A stretch of 40,780 bases of DNA from a virus, in the IMG/VR virus record IMGVR_UViG_3300045988_047143, positions 1-40,780 of that record, one strand, 5' to 3'. Made by a program: the position numbers and the translations under genes. The notes beneath the pieces are model-generated. The model saw only the letters and a list, made by a program, of their open reading frames with translations. It was not told the origin of the DNA and did no database searches. Positions 2,719 to 39,624 of this stretch are shown here, one piece after another (within the stretch, counting starts at the first letter, position 1; each line of letters opens with the position of its first letter).

Positions 2719-5700
2719 TCATTTGACCAGATAGGCGAGGTATTCGGCCCACACTTCGACCGGGCACGGCTGGTCGGCGTTGTAAAGCTTCATTTGGAAG
2801 CCGCTCTGGCCGCCCGTGTTTACCGGATGCGCGATGATGCCTGCCCATTGCGAATCCGCGTTCGCGACGACGTAATAGCGTCCGAATTTAGTCGGGCTGA
2901 ACGTGCAGTTGACTTGCGTTGATGCGCCGGTCGCGATCGTGCTGCCGGAATTCGGCCACCACGCCTTCCACGCGACCGCGCCTCGGAACGTGAAACGGTT
3001 CGTGATGCCGCCAAGAAAGCCACCGAGATACACGTATCCGGTCGCGATATTCGCTCCGATTCCGACCGAACCGTTCCCGTCTTCGGCTTCGAGCCACACG
3101 CTCGACCCATCATTGGCATTACCAGTCAATCGCAGAAATGCCTGACTTTTTTTCGTAATGTCAGGCTCGTCGTAATCCGTATTCGCCACCACCTTCACAG
3201 TGGATGTGACGCCACCACTGCCGGTACCGCCCCTCTCGCGTGGCTTCGACTGGAGTCTCAGGAAAGCGGCCGGATCGTTCTTCGTGACGTGTCCGCTCCA
3301 CAAGTCCAGCTCGCTCATCGAGCCGACCAGATTCGACTGGATGGCGGACGCGACCGTCGGATGACTGTAGTAGGCGGCGGAGTCGTTGTAGGCGGGGAAT
3401 TCCAATCCGTCGCCGGTAAAAGTCTCCGAACCGCCGATTATGTACGACTGGTAGTCCGGGCTGATGCGCACGCGATGCCCGCTCGTGCGGGTCTGGAAAG
3501 TGCCGGTCAGCACATTCGACTTGCCCTCGCCATCAAGATATACGGTTCGGTTGTGGTTGGAATCCCACATTTGCAGGCCGGTCGAATTGAGCTTAAAGCC
3601 GGTGTTCGCCGCATCGGAGCTTTGGAATATCGCGCCGGTGAACACATAACCCTTGAATTGGCCTGCCTCGACGTCATCGGTCACGATTTTTCGAGCCTTG
3701 AGCAGTTCGGTCAGAATTTCGCCGTTGCCGATGTGCACGTTTTTCGCTTCGATGCTGCCGTCCTTGATGAGCACGCCGCCATTAACGCTGCCCGGCACGA
3801 GCAGACTGTCCGCCACAAGCGTGTAAGCGGCGAACCTCGTCCCATTCCACACGTTGACGGAACCGATATGGCCATTGACATCAAGCTTGTACCACAGGTC
3901 ACCCATGCTCAGCCCGCTATGGGACGGCTCATACATTTGAGCGAAGATCCTGTTCTTCCCGTCGGCGGTGGTCTTCGCGGCTTTCGCCTCGGCCTCGGCC
4001 TCGGCGATGTCCTGATTGATGGAATCCAAAGTCTCCTGCGGGACTGCACTCGCCACCGTCACCGCAGCGATGGACGACCAACCGGACTTGTTGCCGGCAT
4101 GGTCCACGCTGCGCAGCGCGTATCTGTGAGTGCTGCCGACGGTCAGACCCGTGACGACGTAATCGCCTTTGCCGGACTGCGTGGCGCTGATGACCTGCAT
4201 GCCGGAAGCTGCCGCATCCTCCCCGACCTCGATATGGTCGAAATCCGATTCCATCGACGTGCCAGTGCTTGTCTTGCCATCCCAGTGGATGGTCACCACG
4301 CCAAGCTCGGACGACAATACCGGCTTCGACGGCATGGAGCATGGCGTCACGTCCGATTCGACGGTGGTCACGACGATGCTTGACCATTCGCCGAGCTTGT
4401 CCGAATACGTCGGCACAGCCCTGACCCTGACCTCGATTTGCGTGCCGCAATCCAAGCCGCCGAAACCAAGCTGCGTCTTATCGGTGGTGCCAGCGGAATG
4501 CCAGGGCGCGCCATCCTTGTGCAGCTTCCACTCGACCAAATAATTGGAGATCTCGATGGCGGTGTTGTTCGTGGCCTGCGTGACCGCGCTCCACATGGCG
4601 GTGGCCAGACCATGCGCATAACCGTCCGAGCCGATGTAGGCGTCGGTCTGCACAATCAATCCGAGCGGCGCTTTCGGCACGCGATGGTCACGGTCGGACG
4701 AGGCGGTCGTGCCGCCCTCGCTTCCGGCCAATGCGGCGCCACCTGTGATGCCCTTTATCTTCTTCGCCTGACGCACGGAAGCGTCATACTTAATATCATT
4801 CAGAGCGATTGAGCAGGATAGGCCCTCGTTCTGGCGCATGCTCAGGTCGATTTCCTGCACGCGCACCTTCTCCCCATGGGTGATGGTCGGAGCCGTAATC
4901 CAATCGCCGGCATGATAGTCGACGAGCGGCAGACTGTCCACGTCGCTGATGACCAAATCGCGCGTGTACTGGCCACGCACCCTCGCCGCATCAGCCAAAG
5001 TGGACTGCATAAAGGCTTGAGCGGTGTCCTTGTCGGACACGCCCCCCTGCGAACTGTAGGATTCCCACTTGCCCCAAGGCGTCGGAGCAGCCGGATTATC
5101 CATGCGGAAAAGCAGATTATTGTCACCCTCGACAAGGATGGTGCTGGCCAGATCGGCGATGGACTCCTCGAAGGGTGCCTCGCTGATGTCACGCGCCAAT
5201 TGCAGCACAATGCTCTTGCTCAGGTCACGGCTCAATGCGGTGCTGTCCGCATTCCACATCTTGAGCGTCCTACCGGTGGTGCGCCAATCGCAGCCGCCAC
5301 CATTGACAAGAGACGACAGGATCGTCTGCAGATCCGTGCCGAGACTGTAATAAAGCGTGTATTTCCTCGCCCATGCAGCGCCGCCCGCGTCCTTCGCCGT
5401 ATCGAAGCCGAGCGACAGTCCGGTGGCCACGCCGCCACGCTGCTTGTTCTCGTCGAGCAGCGTTTTGAGGATCACGCCCGGATTTGACGAATAGAAGGGC
5501 CTCTTGCCCTTGTTGTCGCCGTCCGTTAGCAGATGGCTGGAATCATTGTTTTCAGCCTTGGACAGGAGCCAGCTGATCGACTGTCCGCTGTAGGTGACGG
5601 TGCGAGTCCGGTCATCGGTCTTGCCGGATCGTCCGGTGATGACGAACCGCGCGTTGTCCGGCTCGCGATAGCCAGTGCCGTCAGACACCTCCACGGCGAC

Positions 5701-12679: not shown

Positions 12680-13191
12680 GGCAATCCTCCAAGCCTGTAA
12701 GGCTTGAGCTTGTCCTTCTCCTCCTGCATGAGCGACACCACGTCATACGACGCGCTGGAACCGTTCGTGGACTGGGATTTGACCAATCCGACCGGACTCA
12801 TGCCCGCTCGCTTCGCGGCACTGATGAGCACCTGCTGCACGTCCGGCGCGTCATCGTATCCGGCGTGAATCTCGTAGCGGATGGCCGCAATACCTGCCGG
12901 GAAGCCACCGGACAAGGATTCGACCAAACCCGTCTCAGGGTCGTAGGCGTAGGCCAGTGGATTGCCCTGACGGTCGGTCAATGATTCGATGCTCGTCACA
13001 TGACGTGCTGGCAGTCGGATCACCGTGCCGCCGCGAGTGTTCAGTACTCCCGTCAAGGCCGCGTTCGGCATGACATGCCATCCACATTCGCGGCGGATGG
13101 CCGCCTGCGCGGCCCTGAGCCGGAAGGCGGCGTCATCCTCGAAGGCCGAAGGGTCGGCAATCATGTCGGGAACCACATTCGCATCACTCAT
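12676..13191 (-). CDS. Head-tail connector (gp6-like), about 171 aa
   Basis: GGAGG lies 6 nt before the ATG at 13191 (MSDANVV...). It is the first connector gene after the capsid block. Confidence 0.65.
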   Translation of the reverse strand: MSDANVVPDMIADPSAFEDDAAFRLRAAQAAIRRECGWHVMPNAALTGVLNTRGGTVIRLPARHVTSIESLTDRQGNPLAYAYDPETGLVESLSGGFPAGIAAIRYEIHAGYDDAPDVQQVLISAAKRAGMSPVGLVKSQSTNGSSASYDVVSLMQEEKDKLKPYRLGGLP

Positions 13192-13205
13192 GCCGACCTC
13201 CACGC

Positions 13206-13436
13206 TTACTCTGCAGCCATCAGGCCAGCCGCAATCAGAGAATTGACCAGGGCGTCGAATTCGCTCTTGGTTGGTGTGGCGCCGGCGGCCAAAGCCACAT
13301 GCGTTGCAGGCTTCACTGCAGCGCTGCCAATGTCGGTCGGCTTGCCGTTGGCCCCGACGAAGACCACATCGGCCACGTTGGCATTCGGGTCAAGTTTCGC
13401 CGCCGAGGCTGGAATCACTCGAAACTGTCGAGCCAT
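13206..13436 (-). CDS. Small Ala-rich head-associated protein, 76 aa
   Basis: ORF directly after the capsid gene. Function unknown. Confidence 0.55.
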   Translation of the reverse strand: MARQFRVIPASAAKLDPNANVADVVFVGANGKPTDIGSAAVKPATHVALAAGATPTKSEFDALVNSLIAAGLMAAE

Positions 13437-13447
13437 ATCACGTCTCC

Positions 13448-14653
13448 TTACTTAAGGGTCAGCTTGACGAAAGCCTTCGGCTTGCGCACGGCCAAAGCCA
13501 CACGCTCCTTGGCGCGAATGGTCACCAGATCGGAGATGAAGTCGGTGTCATTGGAATTGGTGGCCTCGACCGTCACGCCGCCCTTGCGGTAGAAGGTGGC
13601 AGCGCCCTTAAAGGAGCCGACGATGGCTGTGCCGGCGTCGACAGCGGGAGTCACCACGGTGTCCAGACCCCAGAGGCGCGGAGTGATGGTCAGCGCGCCG
13701 CCATTCACGCCGTAGAACGGTCCACCGCCGATGAAATTGCCATCATTGTCCTTCTTCAATCGAATGGCCTCATAGTCTGTCGGATTGATGACAAGGGCAT
13801 CCGGCATCATGCCGGTCGTGGTGGAGATCATCGACTGCGCGTGCAGTACGGCAACGTCATTGCCGGCGTCGGTAGCGGTGTATGACTGGATTCCTTCACG
13901 ATTCAGCAGGCCCTTGATGTTCTTGCCGGTACCGTCGCCGTTGAGCAGCTGCTTCTCCTCGACGATGCTCAGATCGTAGAGCAGGCGTCCATCGATGTCG
14001 GACTTCAGAAATTCGAGGTCGGTGATCATGTCGTTGGACTCCTTGATGAATCCAGCGATTGTGGATAATGCGTCGGTGTGCTCGGTCGCGTCGGCGTAAT
14101 GGATCTGGCTGAATTTCTCGCCTTCGCCGACGGTTTTGAAATCGCCTTCCTTTTCGCCTTCCACGTAGTAGGTGATGGCCTGTCCGCTCATCGCGCCGAC
14201 ACCGAATAGGTTGGTGATGGTCGGACGACGGTAAGCCTGGACGAAATTCGGGTCCACGTAGGTCAGCAGGGAGCCGTACACGCCGGACGGTCCGCCGGTG
14301 ACCTGCGTGTCAGTGTTGGCCTTGCGGCGCGGAGCCCATTCCGGTGCTGCGATTGACGCTCCCGAAACTCCCTTTATCTTCGCCAGCTGTTCGCCGATGT
14401 TCTCCACGACGAAATCGCCAAGAGACTCGCCGGATGCGGCTCCGCTCTTCTGGGTGTCCGCCAGATTGTCGGTCAATCCCGCGAAACGCTTATGCACCGC
14501 ATCCAACGTTTCGATGGAATCCTGCAATTCGTGCGCTTCGGCGTTCAGCCCCTTCAGCTTCTCGATGTCGGAAGCGTCAAGATTATCCTCGCCCTTGGCA
14601 AGCACCGCTTCGATGGCGGCCTTGGTCTTGGCGAGACGATCATTGAAACTCAT
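13448..14653 (-). CDS. Major capsid protein, HK97 fold, 401 aa
   Basis: N-terminal helical delta-like region followed by a capsid body. It follows the prohead protease with an ATGA overlap and has an AAGGAG RBS. Confidence 0.92.
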   Translation of the reverse strand: MSFNDRLAKTKAAIEAVLAKGEDNLDASDIEKLKGLNAEAHELQDSIETLDAVHKRFAGLTDNLADTQKSGAASGESLGDFVVENIGEQLAKIKGVSGASIAAPEWAPRRKANTDTQVTGGPSGVYGSLLTYVDPNFVQAYRRPTITNLFGVGAMSGQAITYYVEGEKEGDFKTVGEGEKFSQIHYADATEHTDALSTIAGFIKESNDMITDLEFLKSDIDGRLLYDLSIVEEKQLLNGDGTGKNIKGLLNREGIQSYTATDAGNDVAVLHAQSMISTTTGMMPDALVINPTDYEAIRLKKDNDGNFIGGGPFYGVNGGALTITPRLWGLDTVVTPAVDAGTAIVGSFKGAATFYRKGGVTVEATNSNDTDFISDLVTIRAKERVALAVRKPKAFVKLTLK

Positions 14654-15420: not shown

Positions 15421-16700
15421 TGTCCTTCTCCGTTCACTGGATTGTTCTGTTGCGCGTTCTGCGTCCTGCCGCCATCCTGCGGGCTGGGCTGGCCTCCGGT
15501 TGCCACATTCAAGGGCGTCACCAATTCGTCGCCACCATCAAGCTTCGGATAGTTAAGGATGCGCCGCGCCTCGTTCGTGGTCATGAAACTGCGCCCCGTG
15601 GCAGTGCTGAGCGCCTGATACTGCTCGGAGAACGTGCCGCGCAGCTTCGCGTCAACATTCGCTTCGATGTAGGCGTCCGGCTGTCCGAGCGCGTCTGGCA
15701 GCAGCAAATTGAGCGACTGTTCGAAAGCCACGATGTACGGCATGAGCTCCACATTCCACATCTGCTCCTTGAAGGAAGCGATGTTGGAATTCGTGCCACT
15801 GCGAAAGCCTAAATTTTCTGGCGCGATATGGAAGGCGTTGGCCACGTCTATGCGAATCCTGTCCCTCGCGTCGATGTCCTGCATGTCAATCGGCTTGAAG
15901 GCGTCCACGGTCTTGATTTCCATGCCGTCGTTGAGCAGCGGCCAGCCACCGGCAAGATTGCCTCCAGCCTTGTAGTTCCTCATGCCCTGCACGAATTCGT
16001 CCTGCGCCTCCTGCGACGGCCACGGCATCTCCTTCGGACGCGAGATGTACGCCGGAATCTGACCGCCGTTATGCGCTATCGCACGCCGATATTCGGCCAT
16101 CTCACGAGCCTCCGCCAAAAGCGGTGCGAGAGTGCCGGACACCGGAGAACCGCCGATGCCAGACGTGCTATAGCCCACATCCAGCAGAATCTGCGGGTCT
16201 GGCAGTTTGAAATACTGGCTGCCTTCCGGCTGTCCGGTACTGATCTGCACGCCGGTGATCTCATCAAGAGTGTTGCCGGAAAGAGTGAAATTCTGCACCG
16301 GAATACGCCGCAGCCACAATCTGCCGGACTGCCTGTCGGCATCCAACAGACAGAGCCAACGGTCATTGAGCAGGCCATCGCAGAGCAGCGAGTAGAAGAA
16401 TCGGTAGCGCGTCATGCCAGGAAGCACACTCGGTTTTGCCATCAACTGCGCCAACGGGCTTGTGGTGTCCTCCACACGGTCACCGTCATGCTGGCGAGTG
16501 TAGACCTTGAACGGCATGCTGGCGATATTCCGCGCGATATGGTCGATGACGGTGCGCACCGCAGCCTCTCGCTCGTAGACTCCGGCGCCGAACCAATCGA
16601 TTGGCAGCTGCGCGACCTGCGAAATGTTGACTGGCGATTCGGAGAACTTCTGGGCCACGGATACCGGGCTTTTCTTGAGCCATCTGGAAAAGAACCCCAT
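15417..16700 (-). CDS. Portal protein (HK97 family), 427 aa
   Basis: Size and position directly after TerL, with a GAGGAGG RBS. Confidence 0.9.
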   Translation of the reverse strand: MGFFSRWLKKSPVSVAQKFSESPVNISQVAQLPIDWFGAGVYEREAAVRTVIDHIARNIASMPFKVYTRQHDGDRVEDTTSPLAQLMAKPSVLPGMTRYRFFYSLLCDGLLNDRWLCLLDADRQSGRLWLRRIPVQNFTLSGNTLDEITGVQISTGQPEGSQYFKLPDPQILLDVGYSTSGIGGSPVSGTLAPLLAEAREMAEYRRAIAHNGGQIPAYISRPKEMPWPSQEAQDEFVQGMRNYKAGGNLAGGWPLLNDGMEIKTVDAFKPIDMQDIDARDRIRIDVANAFHIAPENLGFRSGTNSNIASFKEQMWNVELMPYIVAFEQSLNLLLPDALGQPDAYIEANVDAKLRGTFSEQYQALSTATGRSFMTTNEARRILNYPKLDGGDELVTPLNVATGGQPSPQDGGRTQNAQQNNPVNGEGQ

Positions 16701-16717
16701 GAAACCTCCTCACTGGG

Positions 16718-18331
16718 TCATACGACTGCGAAATGGGTCACGCTCGGCGCATATTTCGGTTTTTCGTTTTCGACTTGCATGGTCTCCAACGCGTAAAGCG
16801 CCTGCGATTCGGCCACTAGGCCAGAAATCTGCAATGCGGATTTCGTCCTGTCCCACACCTCGACCTCGCCAAGACGCCGGGACACGGCCACACTCACCTG
16901 CTGTTCGATGGCAGGCTGCGGAAGATGCCGCAACTTCCCCTCACGTACACGGTCATGGAAACGACCACAGCACGCGCCGAGGCGGAAACCCTCGATGAGA
17001 TGGACGTTCCAGCCTTTTTCGGTGAGCGGGTCGATGAAATCGACTGCCGGACATCCCTTCGACTGCACTGCTATCTCGCAGATGCCCGGCCAGCTCTCAC
17101 GAAGCAGATCCAAAAAGTGCGGCACCCACAGCATGCCGTCACGACGAGCAATCAGCTCCACATGGGGCAAACCGTCCGTACGCATTCCGGCAGCGGCCAC
17201 ATACGTTGTCTTACGGTCAGCCGACGTGTCCACGGACAGTACGACGCGATTCTCGTCCGGAATCGTGGAACGCGAGTCGAGGCCGCCAGCCCACATTTTC
17301 GGATTGATGAAAGGAATGATGTCAGCAGTGACCCACTGGCACAAGACCTCGGTGCGAAACGCGGCCTCGGTCATGCCGTCGATATCCGATCGGACGCTCA
17401 TGACGGTCATCGGCCCATAGCCGAGCGACGGATTCGCCTGCCGGATGGCGTCGGCATCATCCACCGGACACTTGTCAGGGGCGCTCCACTCGAAATACCC
17501 GAAGCTGCCGTCCTGTTCGCCGGACAGGAACGCGTCGGCCGGATTGCCACCGTCGGCGCTCAGGCGCGTCCACTCGTCAACAAGCTTGCGGCCTTTGTCC
17601 ACCTGCTTGCGAAGCGCGACGCTGCGATAATCGCCCGCATTGCTGATGCCCCACAATTGGGAGCTCCAGACGGCCTTCGTGGTCTGCGACACCGCGTTCC
17701 AGCCATCGTCCGTATGCTGCTCACGCAACTCATCGAACACGACGCGGGCAGCGCTCTTCGCGCGAATGTTCTTATCGGCGCGGACGATATACCGGGCCTT
17801 CGAACGGGTGATGATCGCCTCCTCGCCGTTCGTGTTGACGAATTTCTGCGTCATCGCGGCGAGATCCGGAATCACCAGATCCTCTTCCTCATCAGTCGCC
17901 GGAGCAGGATTACACCATTCTTTGACCTGATTGTAAGGACCCTTCGCATTGTCCAATGTCTGCGCTGCGCCGACCACCAGGAATTTGACGGGCGGCACCC
18001 TGTCGGGATGCTTGTTGGAGTCCACGAACAGCCACCATGCGGCCAGCACGCCCATAAGCGTCGTCTTGCCGTTCTGTCTGGCCACAAGCACGATGACCTT
18101 GCGGAAACGATAACTACCATCCTCAAGCAGTTCGAGAGCATGCACTAAAAGCCATTGCTGCCACGGGTAAAGGTGGACATGCAGCATGATCTCCGCGAAC
18201 GCGATCACCGCGAAACCATTGCTCGTCTCCCTCGTCAACGGCCTGAGCGGCGGCGTAAAGATACGCGGCAAAGTCACGCCATGACTCTCATCGTCGATGG
18301 CACCGAAAACCGTAAGATTCTCAGCCGCCAT
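16718..18331 (-). CDS. Terminase large subunit, 537 aa
   Basis: Walker A-like VARQNGKTTL, a C-terminal nuclease-like half, and a GAGGAGG RBS. Confidence 0.92.
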   Translation of the reverse strand: MAAENLTVFGAIDDESHGVTLPRIFTPPLRPLTRETSNGFAVIAFAEIMLHVHLYPWQQWLLVHALELLEDGSYRFRKVIVLVARQNGKTTLMGVLAAWWLFVDSNKHPDRVPPVKFLVVGAAQTLDNAKGPYNQVKEWCNPAPATDEEEDLVIPDLAAMTQKFVNTNGEEAIITRSKARYIVRADKNIRAKSAARVVFDELREQHTDDGWNAVSQTTKAVWSSQLWGISNAGDYRSVALRKQVDKGRKLVDEWTRLSADGGNPADAFLSGEQDGSFGYFEWSAPDKCPVDDADAIRQANPSLGYGPMTVMSVRSDIDGMTEAAFRTEVLCQWVTADIIPFINPKMWAGGLDSRSTIPDENRVVLSVDTSADRKTTYVAAAGMRTDGLPHVELIARRDGMLWVPHFLDLLRESWPGICEIAVQSKGCPAVDFIDPLTEKGWNVHLIEGFRLGACCGRFHDRVREGKLRHLPQPAIEQQVSVAVSRRLGEVEVWDRTKSALQISGLVAESQALYALETMQVENEKPKYAPSVTHFAVV

Positions 18332-32062: not shown

Positions 32063-33151
32063 ATGGAATTTGAAGAGAGCCTTAATCAGGTTGCGGCAAA
32101 GGTACGCGGCCTAAAGGATGGAATCGAGACCGAAGAAGCTACAAAGAACGCTTTTATCATGCCGTTCATCGGCCAGGTACTCGGTTATGACGTATTCAAT
32201 CCAACCGAAGTCGTGCCAGAATTCACCGCCGACGTTGGAGTCAAAAAAGGCGAAAAGGTCGATTACGCGCTCGTGCACGACGATCAAGTGCAGATTCTTA
32301 TCGAATGCAAGAAGATCGGCGTACCGCTCAGCTTGGAGAACGCAAGCCAGCTGTACCGGTATTTCGCGGTGACGAACGCGCGCATCGGCGTTCTGACCAA
32401 CGGCCAGGTATGGAATTTCTACATGGACATCGATGAACCGAACCGCATGGACTCGAAACCGTTCCTGGTGCTGGATCTATTGGATATCGACCCGACGATA
32501 ATCCCGGCGTTGCAGAAGCTGACCAAGCCGGCGTTCGACCTTGATTCCATCGCCAGCAGTGCCGAAGAGCTCAAATACGTGGGTGCACTCAAGAGGGCCG
32601 TCGGCGACGAGTTCAAAGAGCCGTCGGACGAATTCGTGAAGCTGCTCGCCTCGCACGTGTACGAAGGCGCGTTCTATGCGTCGGTCATGGAGAAGTTCAG
32701 GCCATTGGTGGCGAAGGCGCTGAAGCAGTATCTGTCAGATCAGGTCAACGATCGACTCAAGACGGCACTCGGCGCGGATGATATCAAGATCGACACAATC
32801 GAGCCAGACGCAAACGAGGAAACAAACGACGAAGACGAATCCAATGGCAACGACGACGATGGAATCGTCACCACCGAGGAGGAAATCGCCGGTTACCGAA
32901 TCATCAAAGCCATCGCATGCAGCGATGTGGATCCGGAACGTGTAACGATGAGAGACGCAAAGGGATACTGCGCAGTATTCCTCGACGATAACAACCGCAA
33001 GCCAATTGTTCGTCTTTATTTCAACACTAAGCAGAAATATCTCGGTGTTTTCGACGAAAACAAGAACTGCGAGCGTATGCCTATCGATACGCTTAATGGT
33101 ATCTATGCATACTCTGAGCAGATTCGCGAAGAGGTGCGCCGCCTTCTATAA
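32063..33151 (+). CDS. HsdR_N-type PD-(D/E)xK nuclease-domain protein with acidic linker and C-terminal domain, 362 aa
   Basis: The N-terminus ...EEATKNAFIMPFI...KVDYALVHDDQVQILIECKK...GVLTNGQVWNFY resembles the type I restriction HsdR N-terminal fold. AAGGGAG RBS. It is the third gene of the repressor operon. Confidence 0.7.
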   Translation: MEFEESLNQVAAKVRGLKDGIETEEATKNAFIMPFIGQVLGYDVFNPTEVVPEFTADVGVKKGEKVDYALVHDDQVQILIECKKIGVPLSLENASQLYRYFAVTNARIGVLTNGQVWNFYMDIDEPNRMDSKPFLVLDLLDIDPTIIPALQKLTKPAFDLDSIASSAEELKYVGALKRAVGDEFKEPSDEFVKLLASHVYEGAFYASVMEKFRPLVAKALKQYLSDQVNDRLKTALGADDIKIDTIEPDANEETNDEDESNGNDDDGIVTTEEEIAGYRIIKAIACSDVDPERVTMRDAKGYCAVFLDDNNRKPIVRLYFNTKQKYLGVFDENKNCERMPIDTLNGIYAYSEQIREEVRRLL

Positions 33152-33408: not shown

Positions 33409-33505
33409 GTGCAATCACAATTGCACCAAACGTCTCTACTTTCTCTTTTGCAATTTTACTCGCTGTGCAATTTGACTTTTACTTTCGAGTGCAATTACAA
33501 TGCAG
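33409..33505. repeat. Cluster of TGCAAT motifs (iteron/operator-like) in an AT-rich region upstream of 33610
   Basis: The palindrome GTGCAAT-caca-ATTGCAC lies at 33409-33426, with further TGCAAT copies at about 33449, 33466 and 33490. Confidence 0.6.
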
Positions 33506-33609
33506 TTATAAACGAAAAAGCCCCGACGCTGACCAGAGCAAATCGGGGCGACGGAAAACCAGCTAGATTCTCCATGCACCATTCTAAGGCAAAGCATGGA
33601 GGGAAAGAC

Positions 33610-34107
33610 ATGGAAGACATGGGATACCAGAACACGCAAGCCCTTTACGACCTAAACCGCACCGGACGCCTCGCCAAGAAGCGCGGAGACAACCTGACCT
33701 GCTACACCACTGCGCAACTCGCAATCTCCTTCATGTGCTCCATGACCTACGACTGGGACCGCGAACGCAACCAGCCGCCCGAGAAGCTGCGCAAGGTCAA
33801 CGCGCCATGCCGCTACTACACGCTCGGCTGGCGCGCCATCGCCGACGCATACGGCATGATTCTGCTCACGCCGGAGCAGTCCATGGGCGAGAATGCCGAT
33901 AAGGAGATGAAGAAGCGCGAGAACACAGTCAAGACGAACATAAGCAACGCCTGGCTGTTCCTCCAGGAGCGTGGTGTGATCAAAAAGCTGGAACCCGCTT
34001 CGCTCGGCAAGAACGCCGGCTTCCTGCTCCTGCTTGGCGACGACGAGGAGAATCGTGCGGTGGAACGGTGGGCGCGCCAATGCCTCAACCTGCCGATGGT
34101 CTGGTGA
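33610..34107 (+). CDS. Hypothetical wHTH-like DNA-binding protein, 165 aa
   Basis: Very high GC3. GGAGGG lies 6 nt before the ATG at 33610. The C-terminal ...NISNAWLFLQERGVIKKLEPASLGKNAGFLL looks like a winged helix. Confidence 0.65.
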   Translation: MEDMGYQNTQALYDLNRTGRLAKKRGDNLTCYTTAQLAISFMCSMTYDWDRERNQPPEKLRKVNAPCRYYTLGWRAIADAYGMILLTPEQSMGENADKEMKKRENTVKTNISNAWLFLQERGVIKKLEPASLGKNAGFLLLLGDDEENRAVERWARQCLNLPMVW

Positions 34108-34110
34108 TTC

Positions 34111-34133
34111 CGTGCCCACATTTTGCCCACGTC
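34111..34133. repeat. 23-bp direct repeat CGTGCCCACATTTTGCCCACGTC, copy 1
   Basis: Identical to 34321-34343. It sits just after the stop of the 165-aa gene. Confidence 0.9.
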
Positions 34134-34320
34134 CTTCCGGTAATTGACGTGAATTGCAGTGATTTGAAGTGAATTGCAAACCATGCGGGAACCGTTGGAA
34201 ACACTGAGAAAACGGCGGAATCATGCGGAAGCTGGAAAACGCTACATGTAATCTGCAGATACATGCGCGACTCAACGAAACGCCAATGATGGCAACGGTT
34301 GAAACCGTCAATCAGGCCAT

Positions 34321-34343
34321 CGTGCCCACATTTTGCCCACGTC
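34321..34343. repeat. 23-bp direct repeat, copy 2 (overlaps the integrase stop codon)
   Basis: Identical to 34111-34133. The 187 bp between the two copies carry further phased short repeats. Confidence 0.9.
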
Positions 34344-35469
34344 ACGCGGCAAGACTCCGCCCCTCGCCAATCGCCTTGACCAGCAAGCCATTCATCGCCT
34401 CGCCCACGGCATCCAGATCATCATCGAACAGGTCGGCGTACACATCCAAGGTCATGGCGGCCGATTTATGGCCAAGCTGCCGCTGCACGGCTTTGACGTT
34501 CGCACCGGCGTGCACCAGCAGCGAGGCGCACGTGTGGCGCAGGTCATGCACCGTCATCGACGCGGCGGCATCCTCGTCAAGGACCGCGCGCTTCGCGCGG
34601 CAGAACCAGTCACCACGGTAACGTCCATGCGCGCGCCGAAGATACGAGCCTGTGCGCTTGTCGGGGAAAAGCAGGTCGGACGGCTGACGGCCCTTGCAAG
34701 CCTCCTCAAGGCATGGCCTGAGTAGGCTTGGGAAAATCACCGTGCGCGTCTCGCCGGTCTTCGTGGTGCCGACCACGAAGTGGTCCCTGATCTCGGACAC
34801 AGTGCGCAGGACGTGGATGCGCTGACGTGCGAAATCGACGTCACCGACCTGCAAGCCGACCAGCTCGCCCCAACGCAATCCACAGAGGCCCAGCGTGAGC
34901 ACGATGGGCCGATGCCAGCCGGAAGCGTCCGCCAAAGCCAGCAATTGGTCGACGCTCAAGTAGACGTGCTTTTTCGGAACCATCCTAGGCAAGGCGATAT
35001 CTTCGCATGGATTGTCGTGGATGCATTTATCGGCCTTGGCTTTCCTGACGAGCGCGCCGAGCGTAAAAAAGGCGCGTCTGGTCAGACTCGCGCTTTTCGT
35101 TTCCGCCAGCTCGCTGACCCACACCTGCACTTCATCGTGCGTGATCGACTGGACTTCGCGCAAGCCCCATTTCGGCTTGACATGGATGCGCCACACGCGG
35201 TCGATAAGGTCGATGGTGCCTGCTTTCGATTCGGTCTTCTTGGCGGCGATCCACGGCTCCCAGAAGTCCTCCACGAGTCTGCGTCCGGCTTGTGGGTCGA
35301 TGTAAGCTCCGACGCTTTTGGCGGTGGTCACGTTGGCCGCGCCCCATGCGTCGGCGTCCATCTTGCGCTTGAAGCCGCGTTTGCCGGTCGCGCTGCCGTC
35401 CGGCTTGCGGTAGCGCACCTCGTAGCGTTTGCCGCTTTTCGTCGTGTATTGGCGGATTGTGTAGGCCAT
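34342..35469 (-). CDS. int: Tyrosine integrase (phage integrase family), 375 aa
   Basis: HDLRHTCASLL...LGHKSAAMTLDVYADLF gives the HxxR and catalytic Tyr region. The N-terminus is an arm-binding-type YTTKSGKRYEVRY. AAGGAG RBS before the ATG at 35469. Confidence 0.92.
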   Translation of the reverse strand: MAYTIRQYTTKSGKRYEVRYRKPDGSATGKRGFKRKMDADAWGAANVTTAKSVGAYIDPQAGRRLVEDFWEPWIAAKKTESKAGTIDLIDRVWRIHVKPKWGLREVQSITHDEVQVWVSELAETKSASLTRRAFFTLGALVRKAKADKCIHDNPCEDIALPRMVPKKHVYLSVDQLLALADASGWHRPIVLTLGLCGLRWGELVGLQVGDVDFARQRIHVLRTVSEIRDHFVVGTTKTGETRTVIFPSLLRPCLEEACKGRQPSDLLFPDKRTGSYLRRAHGRYRGDWFCRAKRAVLDEDAAASMTVHDLRHTCASLLVHAGANVKAVQRQLGHKSAAMTLDVYADLFDDDLDAVGEAMNGLLVKAIGEGRSLAA

Positions 35470-35592
35470 GCTGGTCTCCTTTGCTGACATGGCCGATTAT
35501 ATAAGAGAGGCGGAGCCTCGCATTGCCCTGGCTCCGCCTTGTCCATCGTGTCAGCAAAGGACGATTCCAGTCTAGTGTGCGACACGCCCAGC

Positions 35593-35634
35593 TTGATTAT
35601 TACCGCAAGTGCGGTATTATAAGAGTGTCAGCAA
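35593..35634 (+). promoter_or_regulatory. Promoter/operator cassette, copy 1
   Basis: TTGATT(-35)-ATTACCGCAAGTGCGGTATTATAAG-AGTGTCAGCAAAG. The palindrome TACCGCA-AG-TGCGGTA spans the spacer and the -10. Confidence 0.65.
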
Positions 35635-35655
35635 AGAACAAGCAAGGAGCACAAA

Positions 35656-36108
35656 ATGGCACACTACGACGCGAAATACAGCTGCGGACACGAAGAGCGC
35701 ATCGAACTCTTCGGCAAGACCAGCAAGCGCGAAAGCTACCTCGAATGGCTCACAACGCAAAAATGCCCGGAATGCCGCCGCAAGGAACGCGACGAGCGTC
35801 TGGCGGCGGAGAACGCCAAGAACGCCGGATGGCGCGAACAGCATCACGTCGAAGAGATCATGCCGAACCTCGACGGCACGCCGAAGCAGGTCAAGTGGGC
35901 GAACGACCTGCGCGACGGAGTCATCAACCGCACGAGCCACGACCTGCGCGAGCGGTTCCAGCCACGCATGCTCTCCATCATCGCCGAATACACCAGCGCG
36001 GCATGGTGGATTGAAAACCGCGGCGAAGCCTTCGACGTACTGGCCCACGTCATGTTCGACCGACTTGTCGCCGAGAAGAAGGCCGGAATGTCGAACGAGC
36101 TGGATTGA
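35656..36108 (+). CDS. Zinc-ribbon protein of unknown function, 150 aa
   Basis: SCGHE...CPEC. AAGGAG RBS. It has its own terminator downstream. Confidence 0.7.
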   Translation: MAHYDAKYSCGHEERIELFGKTSKRESYLEWLTTQKCPECRRKERDERLAAENAKNAGWREQHHVEEIMPNLDGTPKQVKWANDLRDGVINRTSHDLRERFQPRMLSIIAEYTSAAWWIENRGEAFDVLAHVMFDRLVAEKKAGMSNELD

Positions 36109-36235
36109 CACGACGCGCCAACCCGAGTATCGTGAGGTGTGTCGTCCCGGCATGAGATGCCGGAACGTGGATTGAAATTATGTGTAATATGCGTGAATCG
36201 AAAAATGCATATCAGGCATGTTTTGATGTCGCGAG

Positions 36236-36267
36236 ACGCCTCGGCTTCGGTCGGGGCGTTTTGTTTT
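36236..36267 (+). terminator. Intrinsic terminator with cUUCGg tetraloop
   Basis: 10-bp stem (two G:U pairs) from 36236-36245 to 36250-36259, UUCG loop, then TTTGTTTT. Confidence 0.8.
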
Positions 36268-36305
36268 AGCGTCCGCATGGACGGAAACAACATGGAGGAA
36301 CACGA

Positions 36306-36530
36306 ATGACTTTGCGTGCGATGCGCGAACGCGCCGGATTGTCGCAGCAGGATTTACGCGCGAAGGTCGGAATCAATTCGATCTCGTATTTCTGGGCTTT
36401 GGAGGCCTGGGACTCCACACCTCGGCCGAAGCGTGCGCGGGATCCGCATACGATGCGTTTGGATACTGCGAAGAGGGTGTCCGAGGCGCTTGGCGTCTCC
36501 CTTGACGGACTGTGGAACGGTTTGGATTGA
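36306..36530 (+). CDS. Small XRE-family HTH regulator, 74 aa (Aca-like candidate)
   Basis: LRAMRERAGLSQQDLRAKVGINSISYF is an HTH. GGAGG lies 7 nt upstream. Confidence 0.75.
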   Translation: MTLRAMRERAGLSQQDLRAKVGINSISYFWALEAWDSTPRPKRARDPHTMRLDTAKRVSEALGVSLDGLWNGLD

Positions 36531-36549
36531 TTTTCACGGCGTGTCCGAC

Positions 36550-36593
36550 TTGATTATTACCGCACTTGCGGTAATATAAGAGTGTCAGCAAAA
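36550..36593 (+). promoter_or_regulatory. Promoter/operator cassette, copy 2
   Basis: TTGATT-ATTACCGCACTTGCGGTAATATAAG-AGTGTCAGCAAAA. It contains the perfect 10-2-10 palindrome TATTACCGCA-CT-TGCGGTAATA (36555-36576) and is about 40/43 identical to copy 1. Confidence 0.65.
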
Positions 36594-36610
36594 AGAAAGG
36601 ACGAACCAAA

Positions 36611-37039
36611 ATGGCGACGATCACATTCACCACGCGCTGCACCAACAAGACGGTCTCGCTCCCGTCCGAGGAGGCCATCGAACGACTTTTCAACGACGCC
36701 GACGAATGGTTCGCATTCCAACACCGCGCACCGGAAACGGAGATGGAACTGTTCATCGCGTCGACCTACGACACAGAGAAGACCACCATCAACCCCTACG
36801 CCACAGAGATCGACGTCAATGGCGTGCCAATGGCCATCTCGATAAAAGAGGGTGACGGAATCGCCATCCGCCCAGGCGAATGGGCGTCCGGCGCATACGA
36901 GGATTGGGAGAAGACCGACCGGAACACACTGCTGGCCGACATCAACCGCATGGCGTGCCGGCCTATGGACACGATCGGAGCGCCGACCCTTTGCGAGGTT
37001 CGCGAATACGGCGATTGCATTTGGAACCGCGAAGACTAA
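36611..37039 (+). CDS. Acidic hypothetical protein, 142 aa
   Basis: ORF directly behind cassette 2. By my count it has about 27 D/E versus 13 K/R. Confidence 0.65.
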   Translation: MATITFTTRCTNKTVSLPSEEAIERLFNDADEWFAFQHRAPETEMELFIASTYDTEKTTINPYATEIDVNGVPMAISIKEGDGIAIRPGEWASGAYEDWEKTDRNTLLADINRMACRPMDTIGAPTLCEVREYGDCIWNRED

Positions 37040-37102
37040 TCCCCGCCTAGAAAACGGTGAATCCTCATACTATTCTTGACATTTTTTATCATGGAGGTTG
37101 AA

Positions 37103-37396
37103 ATGACTGATTTTAACGCATACGTTGATTTGATGGAGCCGAATAATGAGATTTTGAAATATCCGTTGTCCAATGGTGATGACGTGTGTTTTCATATTCG
37201 CATTTTCGATGGGCCTATCGATTTCGATGATGATGAGAACGAGGTGGATTATCTGAATCTTGATCCTGATGATTGGGAGAAGAATGATTTCACGCCCGAT
37301 ATTAAGAAGGTCCTTGAAGAGAACGGTTATCGTCTCACGTCCGAATGTGAGACCGATGGCGATATTCTCTCGTTCACCTGCGTGAAGGACGCTTGA
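37103..37396 (+). CDS. Very acidic small protein, 97 aa (DNA-mimic-like candidate)
   Basis: GGAGG lies 5 nt before the ATG at 37103. It has 27 D/E versus 6 K/R and is markedly AT-richer than the genome. Confidence 0.65.
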   Translation: MTDFNAYVDLMEPNNEILKYPLSNGDDVCFHIRIFDGPIDFDDDENEVDYLNLDPDDWEKNDFTPDIKKVLEENGYRLTSECETDGDILSFTCVKDA

Positions 37397-37473: not shown

Positions 37474-37508
37474 CGCCCCTCCCCCAGCATGATGCTGAGA
37501 GAGGGGCG
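37474..37508 (-). terminator. Terminator of the methyltransferase gene
   Basis: On the minus strand: CGCCCCTCTCTCAGCA-TCA-TGCTGGGGGAGGGGCG (two mismatches) followed by TTTTTGCGTTTTC. Confidence 0.7.
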
Positions 37509-37560: not shown

Positions 37561-38388
37561 TCATGCGAGGTTTTCGATGATCCGCTTCTCGTTTTCGCTG
37601 AGCGGCCATATGGTCACATCCTCCGCGGCCTTCAGTTCCGCGGCCTTCAGTTCCGCGGCCTTCAGTTCCGCGGCCTTCAGTTCCGCGGCCTTCAGTTCCG
37701 CCGCCTTGGCTCCGCTCAGGAGATAGCCGCTGCCGAAGATGGCCTTCCTCGCCGCCCTCTGCGAGTCAAGCGCCCGAATGAACGCCACATCCGAAGCCTT
37801 GACGCGGAAATCCACGCCAGCCTTGCCGACCTTATTCAGTCGTGCGACGGTCAACAATTCCGGCGGATACGCATACTTCGGCAGATGTTTCCTGCTTTCG
37901 CGCCTGACTCGTTTCACCGCATCGTTGACCAGCTTCGTCAGATCCGGTGCGGTGCGAATCAGGTCATCGCCGAAACTCGTCACGAAGCTGGTGTTGACGA
38001 TAGCGCCGTTGGCGTATTCGATCGCGCAATCAGTGACCAGCATATGCGCGCCGTTGCGCGACGTGCTGCTGAAAATCGTGAGGTTCGGAGCGAACAAGAA
38101 GAAAGGAATATGGTTGTCACGGTAGAACGTGCATATCTTCGATAGAATCGAGAAAGGTGGATTGTCCACCACCACCTTGCCGTCCGAATAGTCGAAACTC
38201 TCGTAGTCGCCGCCAGGATAGAAGGGGCGCACCACTTTGCTCGGGTCGATGCCATATTCGTGGCATGCCCAGTCCTTTATGGTCTCATACACTGCGGGGG
38301 GGGTGTAGCAGTCGTCCGTGGTCTTCTTATGTTTGAATTTGTCCACGAACGCATCATAATCGTCAATCGTCTGCTGTCTGATGCCCAT
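37561..38388 (-). CDS. Orphan N6-adenine DNA methyltransferase-like protein with C-terminal (AAELK)n repeat, 275 aa
   Basis: KTTDDCYTPPAVYETI...VVVDNPPFS...FFLFAPNLTIF gives motif IV NPPF and phage Dam-like organisation. The start MGIRQQ is at 38388. Confidence 0.75.
   Translation of the reverse strand: MGIRQQTIDDYDAFVDKFKHKKTTDDCYTPPAVYETIKDWACHEYGIDPSKVVRPFYPGGDYESFDYSDGKVVVDNPPFSILSKICTFYRDNHIPFFLFAPNLTIFSSTSRNGAHMLVTDCAIEYANGAIVNTSFVTSFGDDLIRTAPDLTKLVNDAVKRVRRESRKHLPKYAYPPELLTVARLNKVGKAGVDFRVKASDVAFIRALDSQRAARKAIFGSGYLLSGAKAAELKAAELKAAELKAAELKAAELKAAEDVTIWPLSENEKRIIENLA
37624..37713. repeat. 15-bp tandem repeat, 5 perfect units (37624-37698) plus one degenerate unit
   Basis: CGCGGCCTTCAGTTC x5, then CGCCGCCTTGGCTCC. 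It is in frame and encodes GAKAA(ELKAA)5. Confidence 0.95.
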
Positions 38389-38409
38389 TTTGAAAGTCCT
38401 AAAAATAAG

Positions 38410-38436
38410 GCCCCTCCTCCATGATGGAGAAGGGGC
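38410..38436 (-). terminator. Hairpin + T-tract at the end of the lysis cassette, only about 22 nt upstream of the methyltransferase start
   Basis: On the minus strand: GCCCCTTCTCCAT-C-ATGGAGGAGGGGC (one mismatch) followed by CTTATTTTTAG. Confidence 0.6.
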
Positions 38437-38540
38437 AAATGTTAAAAAACGGGTGTAAAAAATTCCACGGACACTACAGTGCCGCAAATTTTTCCACACC
38501 CGAGTTTGAGTTTCCGGCGCGAGGTCGAGTCTCACGACTG

Positions 38541-38820: not shown

Positions 38821-39624
38821 TCAGGCTTTGACGAGATACCAGGTTGACTTGTCCTCCGGTGCCAGCGCGATGTAGCGCACCGCTCCGCTGTAAGCCACGT
38901 AGCGGCCCCAGATGTAGCCGTCCGCGACCGTGCCCCAATGATCCAGATTGACGGTCTGGCCGCTGGAATAGGTGGCGACCACATTGCCGGATACGCTCGG
39001 ACGGTCGCGCACGTTGAGCCCGTCCACGGCCACACGATACGTGCCCTGCAACACGTTCACGGCGGACGATGCCGTGGCTTCCTGCGTCGGCTGGGCGGTG
39101 GACGGCGGCGCTGCCGTGCCGGTCATCCTGTCATACCATGCCTGGGCGCGAGCCATGTAGGCCGCGTTCTGGCTTCCGGCGAGGCTGGCCGGGCATGAGG
39201 TCGAAGTGAAGTCGGAGTGCGGGAACACGTTCACGCGCCACTGCGGTCGGCCGAGGCCGTAACGCTTGCAGAGCGCGGCCACCAGATGCGCACCATTGTC
39301 CAACGTCGCTTCGGAGATCATCCACGGATCGGCCGAAACGTCCGCATGCTCCACGCCGATGGACGTGAGATTAGCATTCCAATCGCCCGAATGCCATGCG
39401 GTATCGGTATCCCACACGTGCTGCGAGACGCGGCCGTCCACGGCCACCTGGTAGTGGGCGCTGGCCTCGCGGGTCTGCCACACGTCGTAGATCTGGCGTG
39501 CGGTGAGGTTGCCGCCATTATGATGCAAAACGATCTTGTCGACCTTGCATCCCTGACGGCCCTTGGTCATGTGGGTGGAGAGGATGAGATTCTCGTCCGC
39601 CTCCAGATTCTCCCATGATTTCAT
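38821..39624 (-). CDS. Endolysin: N-acetylmuramoyl-L-alanine amidase (amidase_2/PGRP type) with C-terminal SH3b-like domain, 267 aa
   Basis: KIVLHHNGG...SAHYQV...IGVEHA...FPHSDFTSTSCP are amidase motifs. The C-terminus reads YRVAVDGLNVRDRPSVSGNVVATYSSGQTV. Confidence 0.88.
   Translation of the reverse strand: MKSWENLEADENLILSTHMTKGRQGCKVDKIVLHHNGGNLTARQIYDVWQTREASAHYQVAVDGRVSQHVWDTDTAWHSGDWNANLTSIGVEHADVSADPWMISEATLDNGAHLVAALCKRYGLGRPQWRVNVFPHSDFTSTSCPASLAGSQNAAYMARAQAWYDRMTGTAAPPSTAQPTQEATASSAVNVLQGTYRVAVDGLNVRDRPSVSGNVVATYSSGQTVNLDHWGTVADGYIWGRYVAYSGAVRYIALAPEDKSTWYLVKA

Follow-up and report, generated by a model that had tools for sequence, protein, structure and literature searches.

A candidate acr-racr-aca island beside the integrase gene of a probable Bifidobacterium phage

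Solitary phage repeat units that lie behind promoters act as RNAs that inhibit CRISPR systems (PMC10651486). One of these RNA anti-CRISPRs, RacrIC1, lies beside an AcrIC5 homologue in a prophage of Bifidobacterium pseudocatenulatum, and its activity against type I-C has been validated (PMC10651486). Type I-C is the most frequent CRISPR type of this species and has the repeat GTCGCTCTCCTCATGGAGAGCGTGGATTGAAAT (PMC7264901). Two protein anti-CRISPRs also bear on the present work. AcrIF23, which crystallized in a domain-swapped form, binds Cas2/3 and stops DNA cleavage (PMC9270243), and AcrIE7 binds the single-stranded DNA of the R-loop and shields it from Cas3, an activity that was shown with type I-C Cascade and requires K6 and R49; for both proteins the step affected is DNA cleavage by Cas3 (PMC9270243, PMC12002350). 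Aca proteins, the repressors of such loci, have been described that control several operons (bioRxiv 10.64898/2026.07.27.740549). Here we analyze an island of four plus-strand genes that sits between the tyrosine integrase gene (int) and the amidase endolysin gene in a 40.8-kb stretch of viral DNA (IMG/VR record IMGVR_UViG_3300045988_047143, positions 1–40,780; hereafter the window). We consider it likely that the phage is a temperate one of Bifidobacterium and that the island serves it as an anti-CRISPR locus, directed against type I-C and composed of protein (acr), RNA (racr) and regulatory (aca) parts.

The window represents the genome of a temperate phage in circularly permuted form, and almost every gene lies on the minus strand. 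A first-pass annotation had placed four plus-strand genes, opposed to the late genes, between int and the lysis block, and they are found at those positions. It had also proposed an anti-defence island of Acr/Aca type, which is now supported by the homology of the first gene (g1), a mimic of a CRISPR repeat and the pairing of regulator with operator. The repeat mimic was absent from that annotation, which described the region as a terminator only.

The repeat-like unit and the zinc-ribbon protein

The part of the island that follows its first promoter, P1, has these features:
35656–36108, plus strand: g1, 150 amino acids, with a zinc ribbon (C10/H12/C37/C40) and an AcrIE7/AcrIF23-like helical domain
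36105–36133, plus strand: promoter-like site TTGACA-17-TATCGT, 10/12 consensus positions, overlapping the g1 stop codon
36141–36178, plus strand: solitary CRISPR-repeat-like unit GTCGTCCCGGCATGAGATGCCGGAACGTGGATTGAAAT, a candidate RNA anti-CRISPR (Racr)
36179–36268, plus strand: structured tail and intrinsic terminator (stem 36231–36264, then a U-run), the terminator starting GTCGC like the repeat

This arrangement resembles the acrIC5-racrIC1 operon in the prophage of B. pseudocatenulatum AF18-2AC (Camara-Wilpert et al. 2023, PMC10651486), with which it has in common the inferred host species and CRISPR type, as well as a solitary repeat-like unit just 3' of a small phage protein gene with a promoter close upstream. 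The unit begins with GTCG, forms a hairpin at 36143–36167 and ends in an 11-nucleotide (nt) 3' handle, TGGATTGAAAT, that is identical to the 3' tail of the B. pseudocatenulatum I-C repeat, the tail that forms the 5' handle of the CRISPR RNA. It folds as the I-C repeat does, into a stem with a 5' overhang of 2 nt and an unpaired tail of 11 nt. Aligned with the two B. pseudocatenulatum I-C repeats over 39 positions, it matches at 28–29; compared with RacrIC1, 26 of 39 positions are identical and the stem is different. Judging from consensus matches, the mimic has a predicted promoter of its own directly upstream, which ends 7 nt before the unit and would start transcription at about 36139–36141, at the first base of the mimic. 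In related loci, which were gathered from IMG/VR, genomes and metagenomes, TGTGATACAAT or TGTGATATAAT (an extended -10) stands at the same place, together with the other g1 allele. Unlike acrIC5-racrIC1, the present mimic is provided with this predicted promoter and with a terminator, the one that the first-pass annotation had noticed behind g1, and is followed by a gene for a helix-turn-helix (HTH) protein.

The mimic occurs once in the 40.8 kb, with no second repeat end, and none of the nine flanking open reading frames scanned is a cas gene. Nineteen IMG/VR contigs carry the cassette, always among the same cargo genes though not always with the HTH gene, and the mimic is present in about 27 of 39 metagenome loci. 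The sequence GTGGATTGAAAT is kept in 11 aligned related loci even though the stem differs between alleles, and the tail shows a mean column identity of 93% across loci. Together, mimic, tail and terminator form a 130-nt RNA that folds at -54.4 kcal/mol (z-score -4.78). An alternative allele carries two tandem repeat-like units, the second of which matches 18/19 positions of the repeat 3' half. These units measure 33 and 35 nt and have no spacer between them (L003 3807–3874; also L009–L011, L013, L014, L071 and L076–L078), the first keeping only 5' GTCGC and 3' TGAAAC; in two other loci (L005 and L007) the tail is lengthened by an insert of 37 nt. Neither IMG/VR nor the JGI metagenomes contained RacrIC1 in its exact sequence, the present unit was not found in the part of the PMC10651486 tables that was covered, and Rfam gave one sub-threshold terminator-like match in the region. 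A candidate kinship of TGTCAGCAAAG with part of the host type II-A repeat was dropped, the best II-A, I-U and I-E alignments lying elsewhere and at chance level.

A unit of this form might also be a working guide RNA, that is, a one-repeat mini-array through which the phage would borrow the host I-C Cascade to attack competitors or repress a gene. The exact 5' handle and the conservation of the tail would suit such a guide, as would the 47–48-nt stretch followed by GTCGC and a hairpin, which resembles the order of handle, spacer and 3' hairpin. No matching target was present in 50,697 phage records; the scan of bacterial genomes covered the handle–tail junction only, which matched nothing in the genome collection but genuine type I-C arrays of other taxa. 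The internal base pairing of the tail, expressed in the z-score above, and its variable length (47 nt, 48 nt or, with the 37-nt insert, about 85 nt) also speak against a spacer, and we regard a guide function as quite unlikely.

For g1, the description as a 150-residue zinc-ribbon protein behind the first cassette proved correct. Its close homologues come from Bifidobacterium prophages alone, and when 1.84 billion representatives were scanned in full with HMMER, 4169 clusters fell into the family at E≤1e-3. The members are mostly 135–180 amino acids long, with C10, C37 and C40 invariant, H12 near-invariant and two helical motifs that read GTPKQVKWANDLR and SAAWWIENR in g1. When a profile of 26 close homologues was compared with the PDB, AcrIF23 (7fia) was matched at E 5.7e-4 over two collinear motifs and was the sole match with E<0.4. 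A profile of 68 diverse family members matched AcrIF23 at E 5e-8, again over two collinear stretches, and four AcrIE7 entries (9n3x, 9l2q, 9la6 and 9kjb) at E 5e-3 to 9e-3; release factor 2 came next at E≈0.08, and nothing else fell below 0.07. The AlphaFold2 model of g1 (predicted local distance difference test (pLDDT) 87, predicted template modelling score 0.70) likewise found AcrIF23 as its top PDB fold, with E 6.6e-3 and probability 1.00 over 93 columns at 26% identity, the next match having E>1. Anti-CRISPRs were the sole significant PDB matches of the family profiles and AcrIF23 the sole credible one in the fold comparison, as suggested for study by the first-pass annotation, and among BFVD folds the model met unnamed gut-virome proteins only.

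The likeness of g1 to AcrIF23 and AcrIE7 resides in a helical core with two shared motifs, G-[ST]-x-K-Q-x-x-W-A-x-x-I-R and [ST]-A-x-[WF]-W-I-[ED]-N-R, in which K6 and R49 of AcrIE7 align with the near-invariant K77 and R122 of g1. In contrast to both proteins, g1 has an N-terminal CxH...CxxC zinc ribbon, and whereas they come from Proteobacteria and target types I-F and I-E, g1 comes from a probable Bifidobacterium phage. Nor is it an AcrIC5 homologue, the published gene beginning MSTIIDQD and g1 MAHYD. One family member, P0191 (398 amino acids), has at its C-terminus a domain of Cas8c/Csd1, the large subunit of type I-C (PF09709, 30.9 bits, above the Pfam cut-off); another longer member has a sub-threshold DarA_C match. 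We infer from these sequence and model comparisons that g1 is a candidate type I anti-CRISPR that would act at the Cas3 step.

The HTH regulator and its operators

The regulatory features of the island are the following:
35593–35638, plus strand: P1/O1, with -35 TTGATT at 35593–98 and -10 TATTAT at 35615–20, conserved in related loci
35598–35619, plus strand: O1 palindrome TATTACCGCA-AG-TGCGGTATTA, in the P1 spacer
35626–38, plus strand: conserved leader start TGTCAGCAAAGAA, following the P1 -10
36306–36530, plus strand: gene of a 74-residue XRE-type HTH protein, between g1/repeat mimic and g3
36550–36592, plus strand: P2/O2, with -35 TTGATT at 36550–55 and -10 TAATAT at 36572–77
36555–36576, plus strand: O2 perfect palindrome TATTACCGCA-CT-TGCGGTAATA, in the P2 spacer
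36583–92, plus strand: leader start TGTCAGCAAA, following the P2 -10

A duplicated promoter/palindrome cassette had been proposed before, and it is borne out. Stretches 35592–35654 and 36549–36611 are 83% identical over 63 nt, and their 43-nt cores (35593–35635 and 36550–36592) agree at 40 of 43 positions. The 18-mer TATAAGAGTGTCAGCAAA has exactly two copies in the 40.8 kb, against 0.01 expected, and TACCGCA-N2-TGCGGTA occurs in the window at the two cassettes only. Both palindromes are present as described earlier, that of copy 2 being a perfect 10-2-10 (36555–36564/36567–36576) and that of copy 1 matching in 9/10 positions. Each cassette has the geometry TTGATT-16 nt-TATTAT (copy 1) or TAATAT (copy 2), and copy 1 was also recovered as a promoter by the consensus scan. 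By these sequence criteria P1 and P2 are two near-identical predicted sigma-70-type promoters, each with a palindrome that takes up the spacer and extends into both hexamers, where a repressor operator would lie. As had been noted, each stands directly before cargo, P1 before g1 and P2 before the third and fourth genes, g3 and g4.

The expected small XRE gene between the cassettes is also in place, and its product matches HTH_31 (28.9 bits) and HTH_3 (28.2 bits), both above the Pfam cut-offs. Neither inspection of the sequence nor the promoter scan found a promoter between the g1-side terminator and the HTH start, and therefore the gene is probably expressed by terminator read-through. Among the related loci (about 55 for this comparison), two main HTH types differ chiefly at residues 18–29, in the last part of helix 2 and in the recognition helix. 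Type A proteins (…INS[IV]SYF…) always go with the operator TTACCGCA-N2-TGCGGTAA, and type B proteins (…SSTVGRV…) always with TTAC[CT]AC-TGTA-GT[GA]GTAA, at the corresponding position of the same promoter. The agreement of protein type and palindrome type has no unexplained exception, given that the three apparent ones, in which a type B operator precedes g1 beside a type A protein, each have both palindromes and also encode a type B protein 2.3 kb on. A third HTH variant goes with a third palindrome, ACCACG-TT-CGTGGT. The two g1 alleles (150 and 166 amino acids, about 38% identical) have been shuffled without regard to operator type, so the operator follows the regulator and not the cargo. This comparative evidence argues for a specific pairing, and the HTH protein is a putative Aca-like repressor of P1 and P2.

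The locus has several features of Aca1/Aca2-type control, namely a small HTH protein encoded inside the locus, inverted repeats over the -35 and -10 hexamers of strong promoters and one regulator that would serve two operons. It differs in that the HTH gene lies behind a terminator and not directly in the acr operon, and in that at least three specificity classes with matching operators exist. The controller (C) proteins of restriction-modification systems are likewise small XRE-type HTH proteins that act at promoter palindromes, and the HTH protein gave a weak PADLOC 'Control_protein' match (E 6e-4); here, in contrast, the operators are found without restriction or modification genes, and their position in the promoter spacer fits pure repression.

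With its gene near int, and with TGTCAGCAAAGGA common to the int leader and the cargo leaders, the HTH protein could instead be thought to control lysogeny or integration as a Cro-, CI- or excision-type regulator, the palindromes forming part of the switch. We hold such a role to be very unlikely because the operators occur nowhere else: in this genome the palindrome is found before g1 and g3, and neither at the int promoter nor at any other site. Moreover, the early region of the window lies near 31 kb, and the int alleles of the related loci, which are 46–63% identical, have been exchanged independently of the island.

A third promoter type was seen in related islands, consisting of TTGAAA, the palindrome TGATACCAATGGTATCA, TATACT and then the repeated leader GGCATCCCCACAGACTCAAGGAG (L001 3930–4035 and L003 ~4225–4330; also L013, L014, L071, L077, L086 and others). 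It is found with either HTH type and usually stands beside a second HTH protein of 148 amino acids, which may be its regulator. In Pfam the other island cargo of the related loci yielded only a second HTH protein and DUF3846.

Further cargo and the weighing of the evidence

Two more genes, both behind P2, complete the island:
36611–37039, plus strand: g3, an acidic protein of 142 amino acids (isoelectric point 4.4), the usual cargo behind P2
37103–37396, plus strand: g4, a very acidic protein of 97 amino acids, with 27 D/E and 7 K/R and a G+C content of 0.43

All 61 homologous clusters of g3 are close and come from Bifidobacterium prophages or gut metagenomes, and in some loci g3 lies directly behind the repeat-mimic terminator. 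Only 10 clusters were found for g4, which is sporadic among related islands. Where present it is 100% identical, though the other island genes there are 85–95% identical, and this identity, together with its low G+C content (0.43 against 0.58 for the window), fits a recent spread. The earlier account of its composition was right as to the 27 acidic residues and the AT-richness, whereas the basic residues number 7 and not 6; its comparison of g4 with a DNA mimic found no support, g4 being without detectable homology. The gene contexts of its distant relatives were uninformative. The motif [ED]DWEK[TN]D, encoded by a 16-nt near-repeat at 36899–36914 and 37268–37283 of the window, is common to g3 and g4, and a kinship of the two based on it was dropped, as profile comparison gave a probability of 1.2%. 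By association g3 and g4 are further anti-defence candidates.

Several observations weigh against an anti-CRISPR function of the island. The host and CRISPR type of this window were inferred from its relatives. The stem of the mimic is unlike that of the host repeat in sequence and is 5 nt longer, and local alignment of the I-C repeat with the window scored 27 (15/16 nt), where shuffled windows had a mean of 22.7 and a maximum of 29. For g1, the Foldseek TM-score with AcrIF23 is low (0.34), the alignment of the second motif (R49) with AcrIE7 is weak alone (2.2 bits) and the Cas2/3-binding loop of AcrIF23 (residues 17–28) lies outside the aligned part; in addition, the family is so large that not all of its members need be anti-CRISPRs. 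The HTH protein had no sequence match among solved Aca structures, and about 10 related HTH/operator islands are without the repeat mimic. Finally, g3 and g4 matched nothing in Pfam, PHROGs, NCBIfam, PADLOC or PDB profile searches, and the AlphaFold model of g3 was poor (pLDDT 60), its fold search returning noise.

The alignment score in particular raises the question of whether the likeness to a CRISPR repeat is due to chance, in which case the element would be only a structured 3' untranslated region and terminator of g1. Because a 15/16-nt match is within the range of the shuffles, the identification of the mimic rests instead on position, fold, promoter, terminator and conservation. The match consists of the exact 3'-terminal 13 nt of the repeat, a 13-mer expected about 0.001 times in the window, and before it stand 5' GTCG and a hairpin with the geometry of that in the repeat. 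A promoter stands directly before the unit in both alleles, the other allele reaches 18/19 matches, and GTGGATTGAAAT persists across the 11 aligned loci while the stem varies. Because these features occur in conjunction, we consider a chance resemblance highly improbable.

In a broader alternative, the island would have no anti-defence role and would be an accessory module of the generic prophage kind (a 'moron') or one for superinfection exclusion, whose small genes, expressed in the lysogen under control of a local repressor, benefit the host or exclude other phages. Its place at the int end, its transcription against the late genes and the lack of known relatives of g3 and g4 are all in keeping with a moron, as are the HTH/operator islands that carry other small acidic cargo and no repeat mimic. 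What such a module leaves unexplained is a promoter-driven mimic of a type I-C repeat, a g1 family whose PDB matches with E<0.01 are all anti-CRISPRs and a family member fused to Cas8c, and on balance we judge it unlikely.

From the anatomy, homologies and co-variation described above, the activities of an acr-racr-aca locus may be pictured as follows. On entry of the phage, P1, P2 and the repeat-mimic promoter would fire, P1 driving g1 and P2 driving g3 and g4. The g1 protein would block the Cas3 cleavage step, by analogy with the shielding of single-stranded DNA by AcrIE7 and the binding of Cas2/3 by AcrIF23, and the repeat-mimic RNA would titrate Cas5c and Cas7c into dead complexes, as for RacrIF1 and RacrIC1. 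Slight read-through of the terminator would yield the HTH protein, a dimer of which would bind O1 and O2, lower both operons to a low level and also protect the prophage.

Folding also predicts that the handle TGGATTGAAAT pairs with a conserved part of the tail, immediately in front of the terminator behind which the HTH gene lies. The mimic might then be both a decoy and a leader that sets the level of repressor: if host Cas5c/Cas7c bound or cut the handle, the handle–tail pairing would change, and with it the read-through into the repressor gene. If this were true, the phage would sense the presence of type I-C and tune its anti-CRISPR output. Coupled with a g1 family that unites AcrIE7 and AcrIF23 in a superfamily of more than 4000 clusters of Cas3-step inhibitors, this is a speculative extension that we put forward with little confidence.

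Integrase junction, prophage boundaries and significance

Outside the island proper, the surrounding features are these:
34342–35469, minus strand: int, tyrosine integrase gene, from the gene list and family scans
35477–35561, no strand: conserved int-island junction, with the int leader, int -10, hairpin and orphan leader copy
35496–35501, minus strand: int -10 TATAAT, within the junction
35508–35539, no strand: 10-bp hairpin, with a loop length of 10–12 nt among loci
37474–37508, no strand: GC-rich hairpin terminator closing the island, from the terminator scan, common to the convergent gene 37561–38535
38821–39624, minus strand: amidase endolysin gene, from the gene list and family scans

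The motif TGTCAGCAAAGGA forms the int leader on the minus strand (35477–89), an orphan copy (35549–61, plus strand) and the start of both cargo leaders (35626–38, plus strand, and a 10-nt version at 36583–92), as had been recognized for int. Perfect 13-nt inverted copies of it flank the int -10 and the hairpin that had been described in front of P1. The first-pass annotation had described the orphan block as part of a third copy of the -10/+1 block, split by the hairpin; both elements are present, and they are not a recent insertion, since the junction, including this 'split' arrangement, is nearly invariant in all related loci, even those with int at 46% identity. Possible roles for it are those of a common leader, of an insulator or terminator, and of a boundary for recombination. 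For int, the true start is most likely the ATG at 35469, with a predicted Shine-Dalgarno sequence GGAG within the TGTCAGCAAAGGA motif.

In B. pseudocatenulatum genomes, homologous islands are found in prophages at the end that bears int, past which host genes follow directly, and many viral contigs stop 140–220 nt beyond the int stop codon; CP079236 is one complete genome that carries the island. The attachment site is therefore downstream of int, and the island is the first element inside the prophage after int. A phage attachment site (attP) between int and g1 was considered and rejected, because the ends of prophages in genomes and of many viral contigs lie shortly downstream of int. Just 3' of int the direct repeat CGTGCCCACATTTTGCCCACGTC occurs twice, at 34111–34135 and 34321–34345, 210 nt apart; the prophage and contig ends fall within this stretch, and the repeats probably serve as integrase arm sites or mark the attP region.

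Some neighbouring genes deserve mention in their own right. At the other prophage end, a low-GC gene (0.42–0.46) at 32063–33151 (plus strand) encodes the N-terminal domain of a type I restriction R protein (PHROG 4225, 'endonuclease'), and beyond it lies an open reading frame of 232 amino acids at 33409–34107 (plus strand) with no family match; the two are possibly further accessory or defence genes. The convergent gene at 37561–38535 (minus strand, 324 amino acids) belongs to PHROG 21498, of unknown function. It contains VVVDNPPFS, which resembles motif IV of N6-adenine DNA methyltransferases, with no match to a Pfam methyltransferase family, and an in-frame 15-nt tandem repeat (AAELK, about 5 copies, at ~37625–37705), and it is truncated or frameshifted in several related phages. 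Among related prophages, one (L028) has an RVT_1 reverse-transcriptase gene at 13119–14210, and in L025–L027, at about 15950–17900, a second small tyrosine recombinase is encoded beyond the lysis genes, opposite in strand to the minus-strand genes around it; systems that generate diversity or invert to change host range may be represented here. The int-g1-HTH-g3 module is all that L028 has in common with the other loci.

We take the locus to be a new example of the acr-racr-aca type that is already known, and what our comparisons add as new leads are the candidate Racr, the large AcrIE7/AcrIF23 family and the matched operator classes. In the text searched, the AcrIF23 and AcrIE7 structure papers make no link between the two proteins; each reports a novel or unique fold, and that on AcrIE7 makes no mention of AcrIF23 (PMC9270243, PMC12002350). 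The two motifs through which the g1 family links these proteins suggest a possible common origin of the two folds. For Bifidobacterium, the island supplies a parts list: one RNA and one protein that are candidate anti-CRISPRs, together with a family of repressors for which at least three classes of matched operators exist. Cargo of the g3 and g4 type makes a short list for anti-defence proteins, and the operator/leader cassette offers a search handle for more islands. Type I-C CRISPR is common in this gut genus, and the matched operator classes could serve as orthogonal switches. More widely, the g1 family extends AcrIE7 and AcrIF23 to thousands of phage and mobile-element proteins, which suggests that a block at the Cas3 step may be widespread.

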